From IMG/VR virus record IMGVR_UViG_3300032335_000094, positions 1-37,839 of that record: a DNA stretch of 37,839 bases, one strand, 5' to 3'. Origin of the DNA: a virus. Lineage: Duplodnaviria; Caudoviricetes. The notes below the pieces were generated by a model. That model was not told the DNA's origin. It made no database searches and was given only the letters and a program-made list of their open reading frames with translations. This document shows positions 2,402 through 15,011 of this stretch, piece by piece. Both the position numbers and the translations under genes were made by a program. Every line of letters starts with the position of its first letter. Positions within the stretch are counted from its first letter, which is position 1.

Positions 2402-2673
2402 TATTGGTTCATCAGCCTCTCGATGGTGACGTTCAGCGCCTTGAGTTCGTCCATCTTCCGAACGAGCCATGCGCGTTTTTGCCCGTGGATTCCAAGAAGG
2501 CTCCCTCTGTGACAATCAGCGCAAAGTGGCATTGAAGTAAACCACTGCCCCTGATTGATCTCGTGGCACTCGCTGGGACCAGAGGCACCGCACACAACGC
2601 AGTCCATCTCCTTGAGCTGAGCAACATGCCTACGCTCTGCTGCCGTCATGGTTGGTTTATTTTTACTCTGCAT
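2401..2673 (-). CDS. Ref/DUF968-like small zinc-binding HNH-type nuclease
   Basis: AERRHVAQLKEMDCVVCG...ECHEI...MPLCADCHRG..GIHG. Confidence 0.7.
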   Translation of the reverse strand: MQSKNKPTMTAAERRHVAQLKEMDCVVCGASGPSECHEINQGQWFTSMPLCADCHRGSLLGIHGQKRAWLVRKMDELKALNVTIERLMNQ

Positions 2674-3181
2674 TTAAATGCCTCCAACTCTCTCTGTTGA
2701 TTATTCTTTTTGCATTGGTCAGACTCAAGCCATATTGCTGAACAGCTTGTTTTGGACTCAGGCCGAGCCTTCTTATTGAGAGAACAACCTCGCTGGTCAA
2801 TTTGACGTTGTTGGCCCTCTCGCCAACTTGCCATGTGCCGTGCAGTTTTTTATCTTGGTGGTTGCCAGATCTTGTGTCCCACCGAAGGTTGCCGACATTG
2901 CAGTTCAGTCGGTTGCCATCGTTGTGACAGGCCTCCAACCCATCAGGCCTCACGCCTTTGAAGGCTTCAAGAACAACCTTGTGCAGAAAAATTTGTTTTC
3001 TTTTCCCGGGGCTAGTCAAGTTGACAACGTAATAACCTCGACTCCCGAGTATTGGGGCAACAATCGCTCCCCCCATCCATTTTTTGTTTCTGCTGTTTTG
3101 GCGTGCAAAAGATCTGACTTTGCCGTCAAAGCTAACCTCATAAAACTCTTCAAAACCCAAGACAGGTTTCCAAATTTCCAT
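2663..3181 (-). CDS. NUMOD4-HNH homing endonuclease
   Basis: MEIWKPVLGFEEFYEVSFDGKVRS (NUMOD4); LHKVVLEAF...ACHNDGNRLNCNVGNLRWDTRSGN (HNH); C-terminal KLT..V..IR DNA-binding helix; RBS GAGG. Confidence 0.92.
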   Translation of the reverse strand: MEIWKPVLGFEEFYEVSFDGKVRSFARQNSRNKKWMGGAIVAPILGSRGYYVVNLTSPGKRKQIFLHKVVLEAFKGVRPDGLEACHNDGNRLNCNVGNLRWDTRSGNHQDKKLHGTWQVGERANNVKLTSEVVLSIRRLGLSPKQAVQQYGLSLTNAKRIINRESWRHLNAE

Positions 3182-3211
3182 GTTGAACCTCACATGCGAA
3201 CCAAAAAGAGT

Positions 3212-3259
3212 GTGGCAGGCAGTGGTTCAATCTGCTTTTCCCCCGCTAAAGGTAGCCAC
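3212..3259 (-). ncRNA. Putative structured cis-regulatory RNA, copy 1 (leader of the HNH gene)
   Basis: GTGGC-TA-CCTT-TAGC-GGGG-GAAAA-GCAG-ATTGAACCA-CTGC-CT-GCCAC; three stems covary with the copy at 7225-7280. Confidence 0.75.
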
Positions 3260-3267
3260 GTTGAATT

Positions 3268-3615
3268 CTACAGCGTAGCCTTCATGATGTTTCGGCTGCT
3301 AGTTTCTTGTGATCGCCAAACCTCGATTCGGGCTTGGGCGGCTATCAGCATCCACCGCAGGCGTTCGCGCCTCTCTACGGCTTGTTTGAGGGCTTCTAGA
3401 TGGTTCTTGTACCGCTCACTGGCGTAAGCCTCACGCTCTTGCATGACAGCGGTCTTGCAGTCCCCTTCTATCTCCGCAATCCGCATCTGTTCGGCTTTGA
3501 TGGTCTTGCGCATCTCTTCCATGTAGATCTTTTCAGCCTCAGCCTGCGCATACTCGCCGGACTGCGCAATCATGTAGTCAACGGCGGCTTGTGGGTCAAT
3601 CAGTTTTTCGCTCAT
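3268..3615 (-). CDS. Hypothetical helical protein (weak UvsY-like resemblance)
   Basis: 115-aa coiled-coil-like ORF, ATGA-coupled upstream. Confidence 0.8.
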   Translation of the reverse strand: MSEKLIDPQAAVDYMIAQSGEYAQAEAEKIYMEEMRKTIKAEQMRIAEIEGDCKTAVMQEREAYASERYKNHLEALKQAVERRERLRWMLIAAQARIEVWRSQETSSRNIMKATL

Positions 3616-3788: not shown

Positions 3789-4255
3789 GCTGTCTCCTTC
3801 ATGGTTCTCATGCGTTTGTTGGTCAATTTCTTTCTCACAATCTCGTTGGCTTTTTCCATGTCTCTGACGGTGATCAACTCCAACTGCTCGTCATTGATCT
3901 GAATCAGCAGGTTGATGGCGCTCATCTCTTCCGCCTTCAAGATGAAACTTCCCGTATTTGATCCACGTCGCCCAACCTCAAGCAAAGCGTCCGACCCATC
4001 AAGAATCAACTCTACATATTCTTGTTTGAACCCCATGATGCACAGCGCTTCTGCTGCGTTGGCCATGTTGATCAAAAAGTTGATCTGGTCTTTGTCAGCC
4101 TGACCTCTTGTCAGAGCCGTCATGGCTCCGTGGTTTTTTATCTTGAGGTCCATGAGGTAGCTGTCATGCTCCTTGACAGGCTTGAGCCCTTCAATAACGT
4201 AAGCTACAGGGTTGATCAGCTTTGGCCTTGGCCGGTAGCTGCTCTTTTTTCTCAT
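3785..4255 (-). CDS. Hypothetical protein
   Basis: 156-aa ORF, RBS GGAGG, coupled at both ends. Confidence 0.8.
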   Translation of the reverse strand: MRKKSSYRPRPKLINPVAYVIEGLKPVKEHDSYLMDLKIKNHGAMTALTRGQADKDQINFLINMANAAEALCIMGFKQEYVELILDGSDALLEVGRRGSNTGSFILKAEEMSAINLLIQINDEQLELITVRDMEKANEIVRKKLTNKRMRTMKETA

Positions 4256-4602
4256 GCGACCTCCACGATCATCTTCCCGGGCTTGGCTCCGTACTCGCGG
4301 TAGATGGTCACAGGCTGGAACTGGCGGTCGTTGATGCCCAGCGCATCAGCCATCCCATCCAGCCCAGCCTTTGCCGCAGCGAGGCAGTTGTCGGTGTCTC
4401 TCAGGCGTTTGTCGGGCATGATGAAGGTGATAGTCAGGGCAAGGCTCTGGTCGGTGGGCTTCCAGTCCTTGAGCTGTCCCTTGGTCAGCCATGCGCTGTT
4501 GTCACGGTACAAGGTCTTGGCTTTGTGCGTCACAGTCCAGTGAGTCCCCTTGGACCTGTTGGGAAACAGGCAGGCAGGGGGGAAGTCGAGTTCGATCTTC
4601 AT
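4252..4602 (-). CDS. rusA: RusA-like Holliday junction resolvase
   Basis: MKIELDFPP...PN; PDKRLRDTDN..AAAK..LDG.ADALGINDRQF carries the RusA acidic catalytic pattern. Confidence 0.8.
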   Translation of the reverse strand: MKIELDFPPACLFPNRSKGTHWTVTHKAKTLYRDNSAWLTKGQLKDWKPTDQSLALTITFIMPDKRLRDTDNCLAAAKAGLDGMADALGINDRQFQPVTIYREYGAKPGKMIVEVA

Positions 4603-4877
4603 CACCGCATCCGGTTCATGATGGCGATGGAGGCGTTTACAAGGGCTGTAGACAGCTCTCCCTCGTCCTCTTGCTCCGCAAGGCGCTTGCACACCTCGGC
4701 ACAGGCTTGGCGCTCCATGTAGATGGCTTGCTTGGTGGTTTCAATTGCCACCTGCATGATCTCTGCCTTGCCCAGCGCCAGCGCCTCATCAAACTCGGCT
4801 TGGGTGAACATGGTGACGTGACCACCACCGGACAGAATCTGTCGAGCCAGTTGGCTCATTTCTTTTTTCTCAGACAT
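4602..4877 (-). CDS. Hypothetical protein
   Basis: 91-aa ORF with ERQACAEVC motif, RBS AAGGAG. Confidence 0.75.
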   Translation of the reverse strand: MSEKKEMSQLARQILSGGGHVTMFTQAEFDEALALGKAEIMQVAIETTKQAIYMERQACAEVCKRLAEQEDEGELSTALVNASIAIMNRMR

Positions 4878-5151
4878 TTGCTTTCTCCTTGTTCATACGC
4901 TGCCGCAGGTCATCGAGGGCGGCTTTGCCTCGTCGTTTTTCGATGTCATCGCAGACTTGCAGCCACCAAGATCTGGCGGCTGCGGACCCGACCTCGCCAA
5001 TCTTTTTCTTGTGCCGCGAGATCCACTCCCGGGCTTCGCAGTTCTTCATGTGATCTAAGGTCTCCGGTGACCCAAAGGGATCGTCGTACTGCGGACGAGG
5101 AGACGGGGCGACCCTCACGAACTGCATCGAGGTTTTTCTTGGCTTCTTCAT
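4870..5151 (-). CDS. Hypothetical protein (CEAREW...IEKRRG type); start uncertain
   Basis: Stop overlaps the start of the next gene; ATG overlaps the methyltransferase stop. Confidence 0.65.
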   Translation of the reverse strand: MKKPRKTSMQFVRVAPSPRPQYDDPFGSPETLDHMKNCEAREWISRHKKKIGEVGSAAARSWWLQVCDDIEKRRGKAALDDLRQRMNKEKANV

Positions 5152-5158
5152 AGGTCAT
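4946..5158 (-). CDS. Hypothetical protein overlapping the previous ORF in another frame
   Basis: MTYEEAKKNLDAVREG...LWVTGDL, preceded by GAGGAG. Confidence 0.5.
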   Translation of the reverse strand: MTYEEAKKNLDAVREGRPVSSSAVRRSLWVTGDLRSHEELRSPGVDLAAQEKDWRGRVRSRQILVAASLR

Positions 5159-6038
5159 AGCACTCCTCGAATAAGTCCATGGTTTTAGGGCAGCGTTGTG
5201 GAGTGACAACCTTTTTCGGCTTGACTGGCGGTTGAAGGCGCTGCTCTTGAAGCGCACCGTATTCAGGATTCAACTCGCAGCCAAGATACTGCCGTCCGTG
5301 TTGAACTGCCACGGCTGCGGTTGTCCCACTTCCCATGAACGGGTCGAGAACGATGTCGTTTGGACGACTGCCAGACAATATGCACGGCTCGATCAGCGCA
5401 GGCGGGAACGTGGCAAAGTGAGCACCCTTGTAGGGTCGTAACGCCACCTCCCATACGGACCGCTTGTTTTTCCTGCCATCAGCGCCCCAAACCCTCTCTC
5501 CCTCAGAGAATCTGTCGCCCTTGGGGTAGTCGGCGTGATAACCCTCGGCGGATTTGTTGCGCAAAGCTGGGGGAGTCTTTGCCTGCTCCTTGATTGCCTC
5601 GCTGTCAAAAAAGTATTTCCCCGACTTCGACAACAGGAAGATGTATTCATGCGCCTTGGTGCAGCGGTCACGCACTGACTCGGGCATGGGGTTGGGCTTG
5701 TGCCAGATGATGTCTTGGCGCAGCACCCAATTGTCTGCCTGCAAAGCAAGCGCCATTCTCCAAGGAATGCCAAGCAGTTGCTTCCCACTGCCATAGCTGT
5801 CCCCGATGTTCAACCACAGCGTCCCATCGTCAGCCAGCACATCCTTGACGCAGCGAAAGACCTCGACCATTGCAGCGATGTATTGCTCGGGCGTCTGTTC
5901 AAGTCCAATCTGACCTTTGTGACCGTAGTCACGCAAGCCAAAGTAAGGTGGGCTGGTCACGCAGGTTTGCACCTTGACGCCCTCAGCAGCCCACTTGCGC
6001 ATCGTTTCGCGGCAGTCACCAAATTCAATTTTGTTCAT
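5148..6038 (-). CDS. Orphan DNA methyltransferase, N6_N4_Mtase (beta class), probably N4-cytosine
   Basis: GDC, VTSPPY (motif IV) before HFATFP and VLDPFMGSGTT (motif I), then GCELNPEY. Confidence 0.95.
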   Translation of the reverse strand: MNKIEFGDCRETMRKWAAEGVKVQTCVTSPPYFGLRDYGHKGQIGLEQTPEQYIAAMVEVFRCVKDVLADDGTLWLNIGDSYGSGKQLLGIPWRMALALQADNWVLRQDIIWHKPNPMPESVRDRCTKAHEYIFLLSKSGKYFFDSEAIKEQAKTPPALRNKSAEGYHADYPKGDRFSEGERVWGADGRKNKRSVWEVALRPYKGAHFATFPPALIEPCILSGSRPNDIVLDPFMGSGTTAAVAVQHGRQYLGCELNPEYGALQEQRLQPPVKPKKVVTPQRCPKTMDLFEECYDL

Positions 6039-6444
6039 CACTGCCCCTTGTTAAGTTGGCTTTTATGTCCCGCTTGAGTTCAGCCAGCTTGGCAAGAGCC
6101 TCAGACTTGAGCATCTCCGTCCGTGCCTTCTCGTACTGGGTCTGCTGGCGCTCAATACGCATCACAGGCTTGGCAGGGATCTCAGGGCCAGCGTTGCAGG
6201 CTTTCTTGAAAGCAATGGCGGATGGAGGCATACTGATCGGTAGCTGCTCAATGGCGTACTCCAGCGAAGGTTTGTACGTCAGGAACTTGCCCAACTCCTT
6301 GCGCCAGACCGAGCGCACCAACTCAGGGTCAACTTGCTCCCAATGACGGGTGAAGCTGGCCCCGTAAACGGCACTCATGTAGCCAAAGATGTAGTCCAAA
6401 CCCTCCTCGGGCTCACAAAAATCAGTTTCCAAGTAATTTGACAT
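6025..6444 (-). CDS. Putative helicase loader, lambda P-like replication protein
   Basis: Directly downstream of the initiator; YGASFTRHW...W..EL...PPSAIAFKKAC pattern; RBS GGAGG. Confidence 0.55.
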   Translation of the reverse strand: MSNYLETDFCEPEEGLDYIFGYMSAVYGASFTRHWEQVDPELVRSVWRKELGKFLTYKPSLEYAIEQLPISMPPSAIAFKKACNAGPEIPAKPVMRIERQQTQYEKARTEMLKSEALAKLAELKRDIKANLTRGSDEQN

Positions 6445-7189
6445 TGCTGCCTCCACCGATAAGTCCACGGGTAAGGCCACTCATGACCTTTGCGTTACGG
6501 TCGCCTTGGGTCTCGAAACCACCAGAAGGCACTTTCCCGGCCTGATCTTGAGCTTTGGACAGCCAAGCATTCACAAACCTCGCAATGCCAGCGGAGGTCT
6601 TCTGCTTGGTGGGGTTTGACAAAGACCAGACCCGCATCTTCTGCAACTCAGCAACAACGTCAACGGCTGGGTAAGCCTTGGACCACTCATTGACCATCTC
6701 TTGGCTGACACCAAAACCCTTGTTGCCAAGAACGGGAACTTCGACAACCGGCTGAGAGACGCTTTGCGGCTCGACGCTAGTTTGTGTCTTGGGTTTTGTG
6801 TCTTGTGTCTTGGGTACTGTGTTATGTGTAGCATTGCGTTCGGATTGCGCTTGCAATGCGTTCGCATCACTCTTTTCCTTTTGCCAACGGACCTTTGCAC
6901 TTTCGGAGGCCTTGCGGGACTTCTCCCCAGTCTTCTCGATCTCCTTGCTGATGCGCTCTTTCCACCACCCATCAGGGGTGCGGTCGAAGAACTCTTGCAG
7001 TACGGACGCTATGCAGTCGCTATGCGAACGCATACGGATCAACTTGGAGATCTGCTCGATGTCGTCAGGGAGGGGGCGTTCGTGGAGGTAGCACCAGTCG
7101 AGCAGTCGCCGATAGGCGAGGTCTTCCAATGGCTCAAGGTGAGCTGTGTGCGACTGATAGTCGCCAATGTTGAACTGGTAATAGTGCAT
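6422..7189 (-). CDS. YdaU/DUF1376-family replication initiator (lambda O analogue)
   Basis: MHYYQFNIGDYQSHTAHLEPLEDLAYRRLLDWCYLHERPLP signature; internal iteron-like repeats. Confidence 0.9.
   Translation of the reverse strand: MHYYQFNIGDYQSHTAHLEPLEDLAYRRLLDWCYLHERPLPDDIEQISKLIRMRSHSDCIASVLQEFFDRTPDGWWKERISKEIEKTGEKSRKASESAKVRWQKEKSDANALQAQSERNATHNTVPKTQDTKPKTQTSVEPQSVSQPVVEVPVLGNKGFGVSQEMVNEWSKAYPAVDVVAELQKMRVWSLSNPTKQKTSAGIARFVNAWLSKAQDQAGKVPSGGFETQGDRNAKVMSGLTRGLIGGGSNVKLLGN
6782..6863. repeat. Putative replication origin: seven degenerate 7-mers followed by three 11-mers
   Basis: TTGTGTC TTGGGTT TTGTGTC TTGTGTC TTGGGTA CTGTGTT ATGTGTA (6782-6830); GCATTGCGTTC GGATTGCGCTT GCAATGCGTTC (6831-6863). 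Confidence 0.7.
7004..7036. repeat. Second 11-mer iteron-like array, inverted relative to 6831-6863
   Basis: GGACGCTATGC AGTCGCTATGC GAACGCATACG on plus, versus GAACGCATTGC AAGCGCAATCC GAACGCAATGC on minus in the first array. Confidence 0.55.
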
Positions 7190-7224
7190 TTTTAACCTTA
7201 CTTCATCGGTTCACTTCACTGAAG

Positions 7225-7280
7225 AAACATTGGCAGGACGGTGAAGAATCGTCTTTTCGGGAGCTACCCTAGCCACGTTT
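7225..7280 (-). ncRNA. Putative structured cis-regulatory RNA, copy 2 (leader of the replication initiator)
   Basis: AAACGTGGC-TA-GGG-TAGCT-CCC-GAAAA-GACG-ATTCTTCAC-CGTC-CT-GCCAATGTTT; same architecture as copy 1. Confidence 0.75.
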
Positions 7281-7286
7281 CAAAAA

Positions 7287-7316
7287 ATCATATCACCCAA
7301 ACAGGTCCGGGCGCAA
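7287..7316 (-). promoter_or_regulatory. Putative sigma70 promoter just upstream of RNA copy 2
   Basis: TTGCGC-N18-TATGAT with extended -10 TGn. Confidence 0.5.
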
Positions 7317-7493
7317 GTCCTTGCGTGTCACCAAGCGACAGGTGGCATCTTCAATCGCCCGGGCAAGCACAGGGCTTGGCTTGACCTTCTTGGCGATCAG
7401 CTTGGACATCCACTCAGCAGTAATCCCAAGATGTCGTGCCATCTCAATTTTTGCGCCACGGGGCTCTTCGGAAAAATACTCTTGTAGGGTCAT
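7293..7493 (-). CDS. Cro/YdaS-like HTH transcriptional regulator (66 aa)
   Basis: MTLQEYF...EMARHLGITAEWMSKL...PSPVLARAIEDAT..LVTRKDLRPDLFG; LRPD tail typical of YdaS-like Cro proteins. Confidence 0.9.
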   Translation of the reverse strand: MTLQEYFSEEPRGAKIEMARHLGITAEWMSKLIAKKVKPSPVLARAIEDATCRLVTRKDLRPDLFG

Positions 7494-7581: not shown

Positions 7582-7619
7582 GCAGCTACGCCATGTGGCG
7601 TGTAACTCGAAAGCAGATC

Positions 7620-7841
7620 ATGAAACAGAAAGCCAGCCACGTTCCATACACCACCAAGACAGGTCTCAAGATCGGTCTTGCGTATCAACCAAAACCTCAA
7701 GAACTCACACCTGATGGTGAGTTCATCCAGTCAGTCCTCCTTGGACGCAAGACCTCCCTGATCCGTCGTAACGGCATGATGCTCTACACAGTGCTGCTTG
7801 CTGCTGTGTTTGCGCTTATCACAGTGGTGGTGAACAAATGA
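7620..7841 (+). CDS. Hypothetical protein with C-terminal transmembrane helix
   Basis: MKQKASHVPYTTKTGLKIG...; hydrophobic C-terminus; ATGA-coupled downstream. Confidence 0.75.
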   Translation: MKQKASHVPYTTKTGLKIGLAYQPKPQELTPDGEFIQSVLLGRKTSLIRRNGMMLYTVLLAAVFALITVVVNK

Positions 7842-8068
7842 AAGTCAAAGACGCACACATGCAAGCCTACCCGTTCATCGAGCCTGAGAAGGACGACAAC
7901 ATCAAGGCCTACCACCCCGGCATGACCATGCGTGATGAGTTTGCCAAAGCAGCCATGCTTATTTTTTTTCAAGGTCCAGACGACGCCAATGATTATCTTC
8001 ACAGCCCTGAAGATATTGCAAATTGGTGCTACATCATGGCCGACGCAATGATGAAAGCGAGGAAGTGA
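7838..8068 (+). CDS. Conserved small phage protein (GMTLRDYFA...ADAML type)
   Basis: GMTMRDEFAKAAM...CYIMADAMMKAR. Confidence 0.85.
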   Translation: MKVKDAHMQAYPFIEPEKDDNIKAYHPGMTMRDEFAKAAMLIFFQGPDDANDYLHSPEDIANWCYIMADAMMKARK

Positions 8069-8361
8069 TGGACTATGACGTTGAACTGATGGCAAAGACA
8101 TCCGAGCGGATCTCTGAAGGCCTTGCAAAGCAGCTTGAGTCTCTCGTCAATTCGCACGGCCCCAGCTTCACTGCAAACGTGATGGGCAACGTAGGCGTCT
8201 ACCTGCTGACCGGTCTCTTGGCCTCGGCTAAGGATGACGAGTCGCGCTTCATGACGTTGATTGCAGTCGTCCACTCACTGAGCGCCAACGTGAAAATCGA
8301 GATGGCTGGATACGAAACAGAGCAGCTCCTTGAGCGCTTGAAGAAAGGCACGAAATGCTGA
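8068..8361 (+). CDS. Hypothetical protein
   Basis: Start MDYDVELMAK at a TGATG overlap, RBS GAGGA. Confidence 0.75.
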   Translation: MDYDVELMAKTSERISEGLAKQLESLVNSHGPSFTANVMGNVGVYLLTGLLASAKDDESRFMTLIAVVHSLSANVKIEMAGYETEQLLERLKKGTKC

Positions 8362-9349: not shown

Positions 9350-9673
9350 ATGCAACAAGATCTTTTCAGCGCATCTGAGAAGGGGCACGCCGCAGCGAAA
9401 GCAGCGGCTGCTCGTGCAGACCGTGAGATTGATGAATGGACTGATAAGGCGGTGGCCTTGTTTGCTACGTTTGCAAAAATTACATCGTCTCCATTCCTCA
9501 CGGAAGAGGCTCGGCAGTTTGCTGAGTCTTGCGGACTCTCCAGCCCTCCTGACGGCAGGGCTTGGGGGCACGTAGCCAAGCGTTGCCAGCGTGCTGGCTT
9601 TGTCATCTCCGCTGGATTTGGCGCTGCCAAGTCATCCAACGGGTCCCCCAAAGTTTTATGGAAAAGAAAATGA
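9350..9673 (+). CDS. Hypothetical protein, possible winged helix
   Basis: 107-aa ORF with PPDGRAWG motif; ATGA-coupled downstream. Confidence 0.75.
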   Translation: MQQDLFSASEKGHAAAKAAAARADREIDEWTDKAVALFATFAKITSSPFLTEEARQFAESCGLSSPPDGRAWGHVAKRCQRAGFVISAGFGAAKSSNGSPKVLWKRK

Positions 9674-10440
9674 TCGCAGCAAGACCATCAGAATCGAACC
9701 ACTGGTACGCCAAAGACGGCACGCCAGCCTACACCGTCACCGCAAAGAACGGAGAGCAGCGCTCTACGACCCTCAGGGACGCCAAAAAGATGGGGCTTCT
9801 ACCCTCGGTCACCACCATCATGAAAGCCGCTGCAAGCCCCGGTTTGGAGGCTTGGAAGATCAATCAGATGATGCTGGCTGCTCTGACCCTTCCCCGGGCG
9901 GACGGAGAGAGCGAGGAATCGTTCATCAAACGAATCCAAGCCGACTCCAAGGACCAAGCACGCAAGGCGGCAGAACGGGGTACGCAAGTCCACACAGCCA
10001 TCGAGCAGTTCTTTGACGGACAGATCAACGCCAACGACCTGCCCTACCTTGAGCCTGTTTACAAGGCTGTCAACGACACGTTCGGAAACCTCATGTGGGC
10101 TGTTGAGAAGTCATTCGCTCACACCTCCTCACCCTACGGCTTTGCAGGAAAAATTGACCTGCACAGCTTGGAGGGTGACGGCGTGGTGATCGACTTCAAG
10201 ACGAAAGAGTTCACCTCGGAAACACTGGAAAAGGTCGCAGGCTTTGACGAGAACGTCATGCAACTGGCGGCTTACAGGACGGGCTTGGTCAAACCCCAAG
10301 CACGGTGCGCAAACGTCTTTGTCTCGGTCACTGAGCCGGGGCTGGTCGTGGTCAAAGAGTGGACCCAAGAAGAACTGTGGCGTGGCTGGTCCATGTTCGA
10401 CGCACTCAAGACTTTTTACTACGCCAAAACCAACCTGTAA
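9670..10440 (+). CDS. PD-(D/E)XK family exonuclease
   Basis: LPSVTTI, RGTQVH, VEKSF, FAGKIDL, VIDFKT, QLAAY motifs. Confidence 0.9.
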   Translation: MIAARPSESNHWYAKDGTPAYTVTAKNGEQRSTTLRDAKKMGLLPSVTTIMKAAASPGLEAWKINQMMLAALTLPRADGESEESFIKRIQADSKDQARKAAERGTQVHTAIEQFFDGQINANDLPYLEPVYKAVNDTFGNLMWAVEKSFAHTSSPYGFAGKIDLHSLEGDGVVIDFKTKEFTSETLEKVAGFDENVMQLAAYRTGLVKPQARCANVFVSVTEPGLVVVKEWTQEELWRGWSMFDALKTFYYAKTNL

Positions 10441-11256: not shown

Positions 11257-12519
11257 TTAGGGTCTTGCGTATCTGAAGGCGGGTCTCTGTGCCTCAAACA
11301 TCTCTTGCTCGGTTGGGTCAGGCATTGGGGTTTGGTTTTTCAGGTTTTCCCGCAGGTAAAGAGTCAAAGGCGATGCGGCAGAGATCAAAGCACCAATGGT
11401 CTTGAGTTGTGGGCTGGGCATCATCTGCATGGCTCCACCCAAGCCGCCAGTGCCTGCAATCATGGCTCCGGTGGTGTCACCCGCTTGAACGCGCTTCTGA
11501 GCCTCCTGACCGCTCTCAGCCATCGAAAGACCGCCAAGAGCACCCGAGGCTATGGGTGAGCGCAAAACAGCGCCTACGCCTTGTTTTACAGCGCCAGCAG
11601 CTTGCGACAGCGGACTTGGGGGTGGAGGTGGTGGTGCAACACTTGGTTGCCCCGAGATTGAAAGCTGTCCACCCGTGAACACCCCCGGCTGCACAGGCTG
11701 AGGGGTGATCAAGCCCTTCTTTGCCAGCCCCTGCATGATTTGACCTTGCGGCTTCATCTTGTTGTACTGAGCCGCACCCTCTGGAACGCCTCCAGAAAAA
11801 CCTTCCTTGGAAATTCCACCCCAGTTCTGAAGCCACTTTGCCCCAGAAGAGACGGGTCCGCCAACGGGTCCAGCAGGTCCGCCAGCAACTGGTCTTGCAG
11901 CAGACAAGGCACCGGGTAACTGACGGATGGCTTCGCCCGTTTTGCCGATGTTTGATGCGACATCCAAGCCCTTTGACAGGGCAGCCCCAGCACCAATACC
12001 CGCAACGTCGGTGGCAATGCGTGCCTTGTTCGCCATGAAGTCGGTTTCAGAAGCTGGCGTCACCACGGGCTCGGGAGGTGCCTCTTGAGCCTCGGGCTCA
12101 GCAAAGCCGCCCATGCCGTTAATGTCTCTCAGGTAGTCCTTGGTGGACGCAGGCAGAGCGTTCTTTTCGGGGTCTGTGAAATAGGGATGATTGTGCCCAG
12201 CGTTGTACCCGGCAACAGCCAGCATAGGGTCACCAAACTTGTCGAGACCTTGCTTGAGATAGGTCAGACCGATCTCAATGTTCTTGGCTGGATCTCGCAA
12301 ATCTTCAACCGAGAACCCCATCATCTCGGCTGTCTTTGGCATCACTTGCATCGTGCCGATCTCGCCACTTGACCCCTTGGCGTCAGGCTTGAGTCCGCTT
12401 TCGCGGTAAGCCAAGATCACGGCAAGTTTTGGGTCAATGCCCATCTGCTTGGCCTTGCGTGCAATCTCAAGCGCAACTTGCGCCTGATCTTCGCTTAACT
12501 TGTTCAAAAATTCATCCAT
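11257..12519 (-). CDS. Virion ejection protein with lytic transglycosylase (SLT) domain
   Basis: AYRESG...GEIGTMQVMPKTA...NIEIGLTYLK...AGYNAG; last gene of the structural operon. Confidence 0.9.
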   Translation of the reverse strand: MDEFLNKLSEDQAQVALEIARKAKQMGIDPKLAVILAYRESGLKPDAKGSSGEIGTMQVMPKTAEMMGFSVEDLRDPAKNIEIGLTYLKQGLDKFGDPMLAVAGYNAGHNHPYFTDPEKNALPASTKDYLRDINGMGGFAEPEAQEAPPEPVVTPASETDFMANKARIATDVAGIGAGAALSKGLDVASNIGKTGEAIRQLPGALSAARPVAGGPAGPVGGPVSSGAKWLQNWGGISKEGFSGGVPEGAAQYNKMKPQGQIMQGLAKKGLITPQPVQPGVFTGGQLSISGQPSVAPPPPPPSPLSQAAGAVKQGVGAVLRSPIASGALGGLSMAESGQEAQKRVQAGDTTGAMIAGTGGLGGAMQMMPSPQLKTIGALISAASPLTLYLRENLKNQTPMPDPTEQEMFEAQRPAFRYARP

Positions 12520-14021
12520 TATTGACCTCTAAGCTCTTCACGAAGTTTTGAGGCTGCTGGACCGTAGTTGCCAGTAGCAGAGCGCTGATTTGACCTTGCA
12601 GGGGCTCTGACGCCCATGTTGGAGGCGATGTTTGAGATCTGGTTCAGGTACTCTTGAGACATACGTTGACCTTCAGGAGTGTCCATAAAATCATCCGCAT
12701 CCATCTTGGTCTTGCGAAGGGCGGCAGCACGTTGTTTGTCAAAGTTTGCCCGAGCCTCAAGCATACTGAGTTTTGCCAAGATTGTGCCGGGGTTGTCCTT
12801 TGGTGACAGCGTGGCACTGGCGAACAAGTCTCGCTCGAAGTTGGAGATTGCGCCTTGACCAGCAGCCAACTTGGCTTGCTGAAGCTGGATGTTCGCCATG
12901 ACGGACAAGCCAAAGCGGTAGCGGTCAATCTGATCTTGCGACAAGCCGATGTTCCTCAGGCTGTCTTCCAAAGCACCAGCCTGAATAGAAGTCTGTCCGG
13001 GGGTTTTGACGCCCTCTTGGATGAGGTTGAGCAACGCACTGCCGAAGTCTGGACGGTTGAAGATACCGAAGATCTCCTTGGCATCGGGACGAGCAGCGAT
13101 TGAGCGCAGGGCGGAATACGAAGCCAAACGACCAGATACATCCTTGCCAGCGTCGATCATCTCTTGCGTGCGACCAACTTCTGCCTTGGTGGTGTCAACA
13201 GCCCTAGTCTCTGCGCCTTTAATCTCTGCGGCAGATTCCGCAACAGTCGGACGAACTGTTGGCTTGGTAGGGGCACCAGAAGGCGCAACCCCACGGAATT
13301 TGTCAATCCACTGTTTTCCCTGTCCTGCCGCCTCAGCCTGTTTGTATTGGCTGTACTCGTAGGGCGTCATCTCATAGGTGCCGAACTGAGTTGTGAATCT
13401 TTCTTGCTTCTGACCCGGAATCTCAAGGTTGAGGTACTGCTGCGTGTCTTTGTCAAACACGATGCCGTTCATGGAAATGCTGAAGCGATCTCGATCAGAC
13501 TTGATCATGTCGCTCAGGATTTTGGCCCTGCCTTCCATACCCGGCTGACTGGCAAGCAGTGCGATGTCGGCGGACGTAACCGGACGCATTTGCTGGGCGG
13601 CTGGAGCGCCGGGAGCAGCAGGCGTACCGGGCGCTCTGGGAGTAGCAGCGCCTGATTGCCCCCCAATCCGAGGCAGCATCTGTTGAAACATGGCTTCGCC
13701 ACGGGTTGCTTGACGCTGGGCAAGCTCACGCTGGGCCAACTCCATCTTCATGGAGGCAATCTCTTGGGCACGTTTTTCTTGAGCCTCCTGAGCGGGACCA
13801 ACTTGAGCGGCCACGTTGCCAAGAGCCTCACCAAAAGAGCCGGTCTTTGTGGGCGCAAGAAAGCCCTGAGCCATAGCCAGCAGTGTTGGATCAAATAACG
13901 GTTTTTGACGAGCCTCAAGGGATTCACGCAACTTTGCGTATGTTCCCTTGATCTCATCAACCAGAGCTTGTTCTTCTGGACCTTCAGCGTATAAGGAGCC
14001 AAGCGGTGCTTTGGTTGCCAT
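12519..14021 (-). CDS. Putative internal virion/ejection protein
   Basis: 500 aa, helical and Ala/Gln-rich; position in the ejection cluster. Confidence 0.7.
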   Translation of the reverse strand: MATKAPLGSLYAEGPEEQALVDEIKGTYAKLRESLEARQKPLFDPTLLAMAQGFLAPTKTGSFGEALGNVAAQVGPAQEAQEKRAQEIASMKMELAQRELAQRQATRGEAMFQQMLPRIGGQSGAATPRAPGTPAAPGAPAAQQMRPVTSADIALLASQPGMEGRAKILSDMIKSDRDRFSISMNGIVFDKDTQQYLNLEIPGQKQERFTTQFGTYEMTPYEYSQYKQAEAAGQGKQWIDKFRGVAPSGAPTKPTVRPTVAESAAEIKGAETRAVDTTKAEVGRTQEMIDAGKDVSGRLASYSALRSIAARPDAKEIFGIFNRPDFGSALLNLIQEGVKTPGQTSIQAGALEDSLRNIGLSQDQIDRYRFGLSVMANIQLQQAKLAAGQGAISNFERDLFASATLSPKDNPGTILAKLSMLEARANFDKQRAAALRKTKMDADDFMDTPEGQRMSQEYLNQISNIASNMGVRAPARSNQRSATGNYGPAASKLREELRGQ

Positions 14022-14030
14022 GGTTGCCCC

Positions 14031-15011
14031 TTAAATTATTGGAAACGGGTTGAATTCATCGCTTGCGGCAGATCCAGCTTCACCATAACCAAGATTTTCC
14101 CCGCCAGTCACAAGAGTAGATCCGCCTCGGAGGTCTCCGGTTGATCCTCTGTAGTTGAGTCCGCTCAAAAATTTCGATATGTCGCTTCCTGAGCTGCCTT
14201 TCCCAACAGCACCAACCAGCGTACCCAAGCCAGCAATCTGTTGCAACGGAGAAGGTGCAAATGCCCCGGGAAGGGCTTCTTTGGTCTCTGCCGTGGTCAT
14301 GGGGTACGTGTATCCACGCATGATCTGAGCCACGTTCTGAGCACGAGTCAGTGGAGCCTCAATTTTCGACTGTTCGTAGCCCAACTCCTGAGCGCCGATG
14401 TCGCCCAAGGTCTTGAGTCCTTGAGTCCCAGCTTGAGACTCGGCTTGACCCAAGCCATAAAGACTCTGACCCGCTTGAATGTCATAGCCGCGATCACGCA
14501 AGGCAGCATCCAAGGCGGTCTTGTAGCCCTCGGAGCGCAGCTTGGCTTGATTGCCGAACAGGTCCGACTGCACGTTGCCCATGGCCTGCCCCATTGCCCC
14601 GGCGTACCTTTGGCTCCCGAAGCCACCCTGACCAGCGAATGCAGCACGCAAAGCGGGAAGCATGCTTTGCTGGACGTTTAGGGCGCTCTGACGACCCATC
14701 TCATTAACCACGTCTTGCTCATACGGGTTGTAGAACTGAGAGATGTCCTGAGCAGATACGCCTTTTGCAGCGCCTTGCAGAGTCGACAAGGACTCGTCCA
14801 TGGGGGTTTGGTAGCGCTCCAAAGTGTCCCGAGCCCCACCGTACAGATCCTGAAGGTTTTGATTCAGTGGAGCAATGCTGGCTGCACCCAACTGCTGTTG
14901 ACCAGTCTGGGCCAGTGAAGACAGGTAGTCCGTCAGGTACTGCGGGGCGGTTTGAGTGGTGCTACCCTTTAACTCCACTTTCCGTGGATCTGGCGCGTCA
15001 AATAAGCTCAT
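14031..15011 (-). CDS. Putative DNA transfer/ejection protein
   Basis: Gln/Gly-rich, FYNPYEQDVV, GGFGSQR, SPLQQIAGLG segments typical of podovirus pilot proteins. Confidence 0.7.
   Translation of the reverse strand: MSLFDAPDPRKVELKGSTTQTAPQYLTDYLSSLAQTGQQQLGAASIAPLNQNLQDLYGGARDTLERYQTPMDESLSTLQGAAKGVSAQDISQFYNPYEQDVVNEMGRQSALNVQQSMLPALRAAFAGQGGFGSQRYAGAMGQAMGNVQSDLFGNQAKLRSEGYKTALDAALRDRGYDIQAGQSLYGLGQAESQAGTQGLKTLGDIGAQELGYEQSKIEAPLTRAQNVAQIMRGYTYPMTTAETKEALPGAFAPSPLQQIAGLGTLVGAVGKGSSGSDISKFLSGLNYRGSTGDLRGGSTLVTGGENLGYGEAGSAASDEFNPFPII

Follow-up and report, generated by a model that had tools for sequence, protein, structure and literature searches.

An int-alpA family RNA before a phage replication initiator, with a variable loop and matching sites downstream, as a possible translational switch in cis

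The C4 antisense RNA of phage P1 is a phage RNA whose short loop can pair with sites on the transcript to which it belongs. The CI RNA of phage P4 is of the same kind; as described in parts of PMC4825925, it undergoes processing and, acting in trans on upstream and downstream sites, terminates transcription. In the env8 cobalamin riboswitch an upstream loop kisses a small hairpin at the ribosome binding site (RBS) through 5-7 pairs (the L5-L13 contact), and this occlusion represses translation (passages of PMC10907184). In the repZ/Inc RNA system of ColIb-P9 a hairpin further upstream pairs through its loop near the hairpin-masked Shine-Dalgarno (SD) sequence of a replication initiator, and two partners compete for the loop; there, according to sections of PMC4705826, the pairing activates and depends on a leader peptide, with an antisense RNA as the competitor. 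Hairpins over the RBS also brake the translation of homing nucleases in phage T4, where promoter choice removes the hairpin (parts of PMC2988022). The phage locus analyzed here resembles each of these systems in part. In contrast to the CI RNA, both of its loop-complementary sites lie at most 35 nt downstream. In contrast to the cobalamin riboswitch, it has no Rfam match to a cobalamin aptamer and no related genes, and a competing site takes the place of the known ligand. Whereas the competitor in repZ is an antisense RNA, here it is a repeat in cis, and the predicted RNA start, unlike that of the T4 messages without hairpin, would include the whole structure, control being exerted by one loop with two targets.

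The window, a stretch of 37,839 nucleotides, is a whole virus record that is 68% complete, and its near relatives were found in freshwater and aquatic DNA runs. Relatives of the element also appeared in contigs from four DNA runs. At E<=1 it contained two Rfam matches, both to int-alpA (RF02996); C4 and PK-repZ were not matched. The first match, at 7279-7212 on the minus strand, covered the full model (1-71) with 39.5 bits against a cut-off of 35.8. The element had been put forward in an earlier note as a candidate for an undescribed system, and this match shows that it is already catalogued; it is a new member of a known, unexplained RNA family. The second match, at 3262-3195 on the minus strand, reached 29 bits and was under the cut-off. 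Among 20 relatives compared with RF02996, 16 passed the cut-off, two were below it and two had no match.

The window copy shares with int-alpA the three-way junction, the junction bases, the P3 loop and the 3' tail. The joining strands UA, GAAAA and CU and the paired P1-P3 were all present, and the alignment contained no flagged non-standard pair. The context is also that of a phage or mobile element, since the source is a virus record and the relatives occur in viral contigs and cultured phages. The consensus of RF02996 already has a pyrimidine loop and a purine tail able to pair. The 71-position model stops at the first of the two sites described below (t1), and contains neither the second site (t2) nor the hairpin P4, the SD or the promoter. 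A hammerhead-like order of the joining strands was considered and rejected, as the catalytic core and any such Rfam match were absent.

The name int-alpA presumably implies neighbouring integrase or AlpA genes, which is a naming context and no structural criterion. The flanking genes here are YdaS-like and DUF1376 genes, and an integrase was found in only one of the 83 downstream genes scanned. Rfam lists the type of RF02996 as 'Gene; sRNA', whereas the comparative data below point to a cis leader rather than an sRNA. The motif was reportedly first described in the 2017 survey of Weinberg et al. We found no functional study of int-alpA in the literature searched; the term 'alpA' was absent from the main text of PMC5737381, whose supplement may already draw the pairing of loop and t1 or discuss function. 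In the parts of PMC12370729 consulted int-alpA is a table entry that is not studied further, and in those of PMC13612085 'int-alpA' is used as a gene-order term. The accession 'RF02996' was not found in the literature searched.

The element occupies 7190-7292 on the minus strand, and all features described in the earlier note (scaffold, stems, loop, repeats, TAAGG and ATG) were recovered at their positions. The three-way-junction core (7281-7224; P1, P2, GAAAA and P3) is supported by its int-alpA membership, by the minimum-energy fold and by compensatory P1, P2 and P3 variants in relatives. P1 is formed by the 5' strand GAAACGTGGC (7281-7272) and a 3' strand at 7234-7224. TA joins P1 to P2 (GGG/CCC, 7269-7259), followed by the GAAAA joining strand (7258-7254) and P3 (GACG/CGTC, 7253-7237), which CT joins to the 3' strand of P1. 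By sequence and Rfam alignment, the variable loop L3 is ATTCTTCAC at 7249-7241. Site t1, GTGAAG (7219-7214), is a 6-bp complement of the 3' part of the loop, with which it is predicted to form a pseudoknot, and is likely a decoy. The last repeat, ATGAAG (7206-7201), contains site t2, TGAAG (7205-7201), a 5-bp loop complement abutting the SD-like TAAGG (7200-7196), which lies 6 nt before the ATG at 7189. Two occurrences of the scaffold pattern were found in the window and none in 100 shuffled versions of it.

Two features go beyond the earlier description, namely a promoter-like box and a hairpin around the last site. The hairpin, P4 (AACC/GGTT, 7211-7194), appears in the minimum-energy fold; its 10-nt loop holds t2 and its stem pairs part of the SD. 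P4 alone is weak (-1.7 kcal/mol), yet it forms within the minimum-energy fold, in which the loop, t1 and t2 are all open. This fold is the model fold, but its stability is that of shuffled sequences (z = -0.18). The structure therefore rests on comparison and not on energy, since z is near zero and the sister copy folds otherwise by nested prediction; thermodynamic stability was dropped as evidence for the element. A third repeat, GTGAA (7214-7210), had been proposed as a further target. It is incidental: by eye it was present in three of the eight elements inspected with the loop ATTCTTCAC (the window, L051 and L257) and absent in L087, L263, L314, L334 and L340.

The sister copy extends over 3179-3270 on the minus strand and was identified by the scaffold pattern, which matched at 3262-3207; its core lies at 3262-3209. 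Its sequence contains the -10-like TAGAAT (3270-3265), the loop ATTGAACCA (3231-3223) and t1 TGGTTC (3203-3198). Its P4 (CATGT/ACATG, 3196-3179) holds the SD GAGG and t2 GGTTCAA in the loop and the ATG in the stem. The model fold of this copy was not reached by nested prediction. The gene behind it (2663-3181, minus strand) encodes a NUMOD4-HNH endonuclease of 172 aa starting from the ATG at 3181 (PF07463, PF13392).

Relatives were searched with a pattern of fixed scaffold and free loop, which returned 120 viral loci, with about 700 estimated in the collection. From 109 unique elements 99 were used, carrying 51 different loops; ten were dropped for missing stems (P2 or P3) or short flanks. A match was a loop complement of at least 5 nt lying at most 45 nt downstream. 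In this check, which follows the one proposed in the earlier note, 97 of the 99 elements had at least one site and 69 had two. With swapped loops (200 swaps) the means were 20.7 (maximum 31) for one site and 4.6 (maximum 12) for two, and control windows upstream and far downstream gave 11 and 18 loop complements. Counting one element per loop, 49/51 had a site and 39/51 had two. Replicates agreed: viral elements with another P1 end had one site in 83/92 and two in 54/92, and those from bacterial genomes in 23/29 and 16/29. A subtype with a long P2 had one site in 93/96 and two in 39/96, where swapped loops gave 27 and 4. Stemless chance matches, used as a control, had one site in 19/83 and two in 3/83. 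The proposal that the scaffold is fixed while the loop varies together with its complements downstream was thus upheld in four sets of relatives.

Site t1 was also located by position and a GT.A anchor, in the 77 elements whose 9-nt loops end in AC. It was the exact loop complement in 73/77 elements and 20/23 loop types, the exceptions being two loop types that were not located and one that was mis-anchored. In the same set t2 was taken to be the repeat that best fits t1, and its final four bases also followed the loop. All of these counts are sequences and not independent events. However, the 220 well-formed relatives carried 131 distinct loops, and shared descent cannot explain a match of loop and site across more than 130 of them. 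The search patterns fixed the junction bases, and so their constancy in these sets is no measure of conservation.

The same data bear on whether the repeats could be DNA-level protein-binding sites, two direct and one inverted, that replace CII-type control. The t1 and t2 repeats do lie about 14 bp apart beside a promoter-like box, at a position that matches ydaT in Rac-like prophages. However, stems P1-P4 vary in a compensating fashion with G-U pairs tolerated, and the repeat differs in more than 100 ways yet always fits the loop. Covariation largely refutes binding sites in DNA, and we regard them as very improbable.

The arrangement of the two sites was analyzed in the 131 loop types. At the threshold used, t1 was present in 117 and both sites in 100, one site being missing in 31. 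Site t1 started 10-20 nt after the core, and t2 mostly lay 12-16 nt after t1 with its register shifted by about one base; the pairing of t1 reached the last base of the loop in 90/100, while that of t2 was shifted. The mean duplex energies were nearly identical, -7.29 kcal/mol for t1 and -7.32 kcal/mol for t2, t1 being the stronger in 40 and t2 in 44. Among the 95 relatives with a start codon, a P4 of at least 4 bp enclosed t2 in 75, against 38.2 (maximum 48) in a spacer-swap control, and a 4-bp P4 was absent in 20. Site t2 overlapped the SD in 64 of these 95, abutted it in 13 and lay 3' of it in eight, while ten had no clear SD. Within P4, 81% of the t2 bases were unpaired. A hairpin at the RBS with a loop able to pair with another loop further upstream, as found here, is also the platform of kissing-loop riboswitches.

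At the level of sequence, comparison of the relatives demonstrates a three-way junction and co-variation of the loop with both t1 and t2, a P4 that presents t2 and lies over the RBS or start codon, and a promoter-like box that would start the RNA at P1. From these features we consider it somewhat more probable than not that the element is a 5' leader acting in cis, a self-contained two-state translational brake on the next gene, here the DUF1376 initiator. Site t1 would be transcribed first and capture the loop as a pseudoknot. With the loop on t1, only the weak P4 would cover the RBS and translation would be leaky (ON). When the loop instead kisses the P4 loop at t2, P4 would be locked and the ribosome blocked (OFF). 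We infer this assignment of ON and OFF from the overlap of t2 with the SD. As t1 and t2 are of near-equal strength, folding kinetics and equilibrium would determine the output, and dose-sensitive DNA-acting proteins might be kept scarce without a dedicated regulator. The kissing-loop occlusion in the cobalamin riboswitch (PMC10907184, in part) and the brakes on T4 homing nucleases (PMC2988022, in part) provide precedents. Against a switch in cis stand the weak t2 and P4 of the window copy (t2 has 5 bp and -3.5 kcal/mol, and abuts the SD without overlapping it), a promoter that fails the consensus scan, the different fold that nested prediction gives for the sister copy, the 31/131 loop types without one of the sites and the 20/95 relatives without a 4-bp P4.

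The polarity could also be the opposite, as in ColIb-P9 repZ, with loop:t2 pairing that opens P4 and activates translation and t1 as the OFF sink. The gene is a replication initiator, and t2 lies just 5' of the SD in the window copy and in 13/95 relatives, which is the repZ arrangement (parts of PMC4705826). However, t2 overlaps the SD in 64/95 relatives and lies between SD and start in eight, it is mostly in the loop of P4 and not in the stem, and a leader peptide between loop and t2 is absent. In addition, antisense -10 boxes showed no enrichment in the relatives (7-18 of 131 in every bin). Activation by t2 thus seems to us a poor prospect.

Upstream of the core, the window copy has a predicted -10 hexamer TATGAT (7292-7287, minus strand; 5/6) directly after the stop of the ydaS-like gene; from this box the RNA would begin at about 7280, where P1 starts. 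A predicted -35-like hexamer TTGCGC (7316-7311, minus strand; 3/6) lies 18 nt from it, inside the 3' end of that gene. These boxes fail the threshold of a consensus promoter scan. Among the relatives, a -10-like box 7-14 nt before the core was found in 120/205, versus 4/82 stemless chance matches, and it was also present in 45/87 relatives without a near stop codon. TTG at -35 spacing occurred in 40 of the 120, against 5-12 at other spacings. A terminator-like hairpin at 7313-7294 was at chance level (one found, 0.6 in shuffles).

The upstream gene ended 5-25 nt before the core in 118/205 relatives and in 7/82 controls. This enrichment speaks for a ribosome that ends the upstream gene and shifts the loop between t1 and t2. 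More generally, the same switch in cis could be set by an outside signal, which might also be a metabolite, an ion or a host or phage protein at the junction. The balanced energies of t1 and t2, the junction bases kept in the Rfam consensus and the likeness to the kissing-loop expression platform of cobalamin riboswitches (passages of PMC10907184) agree with this, and a junction that is invariant across phyla could equally be a pocket for a ligand or protein. However, the distances to the stop vary from 8 to 25 nt with no tight phasing and 87/205 relatives have no near stop, so that a tight coupling to the upstream stop was rejected, and the downstream genes have no common metabolic theme. An outside signal is in our opinion a minority option, though one to be taken seriously.

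The genes behind the element were classified by a scan of 83 proteins out of 139 encoded downstream, a selection that omitted most of the DUF1376-like repeats. Nucleases (HNH, endonuclease VII and GIY-YIG) accounted for 29 and replication initiators or primases for 14. The others were three methyltransferases, two Rha-like regulators, the integrase already mentioned, one PAPS reductase-like protein and one tail chaperone; 32 had no known role (six unknown families and 26 proteins without family). By these assignments, the downstream genes are mutually unrelated and mostly DNA-acting. An ORF count of 212 of 220 relatives is without a control and was not used as proof. The carriers included records of Proteobacteria, Firmicutes, Planctomycetes and Bacteroidetes as well as cultured phages such as Enterobacter phage Tyrion. 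A form of the element was present in 51 of 5426 E. coli genomes. Unrelated downstream genes and spread over several phyla argue against a dedicated phage protein. The unrelated genes also suggest that the element moves as a cassette of promoter, leader and RBS. Since this cassette moves between unrelated genes and hosts, a self-contained throttle is favoured over an outside trigger. An orphan Rfam motif would then be a very common phage leader with a testable design, in which a single loop faces a decoy and, at the RBS, a kissing target; this would explain a portable expression brake of replication initiators and mobile nucleases among unrelated phages and offer a small reprogrammable translation part.

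In the window the gene behind the element is a DUF1376/YdaU-like replication initiator of 255 aa (6422-7189, minus strand; PF07120, E=5e-23; PHROG primosomal protein), the putative regulated gene. Upstream lies a YdaS/Cro-like gene (7293-7493, minus strand; PF15943) of 66 aa from the ATG at 7493, whose stop is just before the -10 box; the phrog_35 match to this gene starts at residue 70 of a longer ORF. In Rac-like prophages the CII-like ydaT occupies the corresponding slot. The earlier placement of the element between ydaS-like and ydaU-like genes, in the ydaT slot of Rac, is correct, but the element shows no tie to CII function, because the same element precedes unrelated genes and is not bound to that slot. 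Opposite the YdaS/Cro-like gene no repressor of the CI type was detected, and the small divergent ORFs there (7593-8361, plus strand) had no Pfam family.

Three search patterns gave estimates of about 700, 1400 and 2200 stretches in the viral collection, some of them by chance. The long-P2 subtype (L714-L833, e.g. L714, L717 and L746) has a P2 of 17-26 nt, a 3-bp P3 and C-rich loops, and accounts for the estimate of about 2200. It is the commonest form before DUF1376-type initiators and makes up 69% of the weighted pool. RF02996 detected 8 of 13 members, all eight below the cut-off (25-35.4 bits). The outer P1 is often TTTGAAAC/GTTTC in this subtype, as it is in the window copy.

The different loops of the two window copies had been taken to keep each copy specific to its own gene, and genomes with two copies bear on this. 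Two copies were present in 13 of 100 whole viral records; together with those from three further scans directed at the loop or P2, there were 26 distinct sets (the window not counted) that included 19 pairs of a replication gene with another gene. Identical loops occurred in none of the 26 sets. However, none in the 19 pairs is uninformative against an expectation of 0.59, and cross matches of 5 nt were not depleted (9 versus 6.2 expected), so that specificity between same-genome copies does not go beyond chance. HNH cassettes beside long-P2 replication leaders looked striking as a case of orthogonality, but the effect was gone once the long-P2 leaders were seen to outnumber the others. Three of the four cross pairings between the two copies of the window were negligible.

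These counts are relevant to a guide acting in trans, in which a short core without t1, freed when the RNA terminates or is cleaved in the U-rich linker, would occupy the second site on cognate transcripts, leading to negative feedback and a phage incompatibility defined by the loop. Each transcript has two sites but one loop, loop diversity is high (131/220), and the CI RNA of P4 is cut from its own target transcript (parts of PMC4825925). A U-rich run before t1, which could release such a core, was present in 37/100 relatives, versus 8 and 4 of 100 in controls. However, it was missing in 63/100, and 5-7 bp are short for action in trans. The elements almost always bring their own targets, one clade has a loop core common to adjacent copies, and the window loop binds the t2 region of the sister copy (-3.4) as well as its own t2 (-3.5). 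A guide in trans is accordingly held to be improbable. Also improbable, in our estimate, is a counting of loops, by which one loop per message would leave the gene on and accumulating free-loop fragments would fill the second site and turn it off. If it were true, phage replication initiators and homing nucleases would fall into incompatibility or superinfection groups according to their loop, and the element would be a programmable 60-nt regulator with more than 160 natural specificities.

Some individual loci are of note. One phage (L378, G084) had two copies with loops one central base apart (ATTCTTCAC and ATTCATCAC), and in each copy both sites fitted the copy's own loop. In L279 (6001-6631), L316 and L318, tandem elements lie 585 nt apart and have the common loop core CCTTG with t1 TCAAGG; the t2 of the second element is unusually distant, at about 45 nt. 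In L264 (4566-4660, plus strand) t1 is followed by a terminator-like hairpin and a T run, with neither t2 nor gene, possibly a stand-alone small RNA form. The element in L371 (G043:C1:6216-6285, minus strand) precedes an ORF starting MLKAFKFRLYP, a start which we take to resemble the N-termini of IS200/IS605 TnpB. An enterobacterial form with the loop CATCGTCA (L834:2501-2591; L005, L035) was located before many unrelated small hypothetical genes, and in Salmonella phage BIS08P22 it is flanked by a KilA-N gene and the terminase region. Among L009 (2272-2506), L731 (1883-2060) and L033 (2368-2452), two related loci had group I introns and the third had a DUF3800-VII RNA, in each case near the gene of the leader. 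The window contained no tRNA genes; further genes in it (4252-6041, minus strand; 9562-10440, plus strand; 11257-15011, minus strand) encode a RusA resolvase, an N6/N4 DNA methyltransferase, a PD-(D/E)XK exonuclease and podovirus-like proteins of the internal-virion or ejection type.
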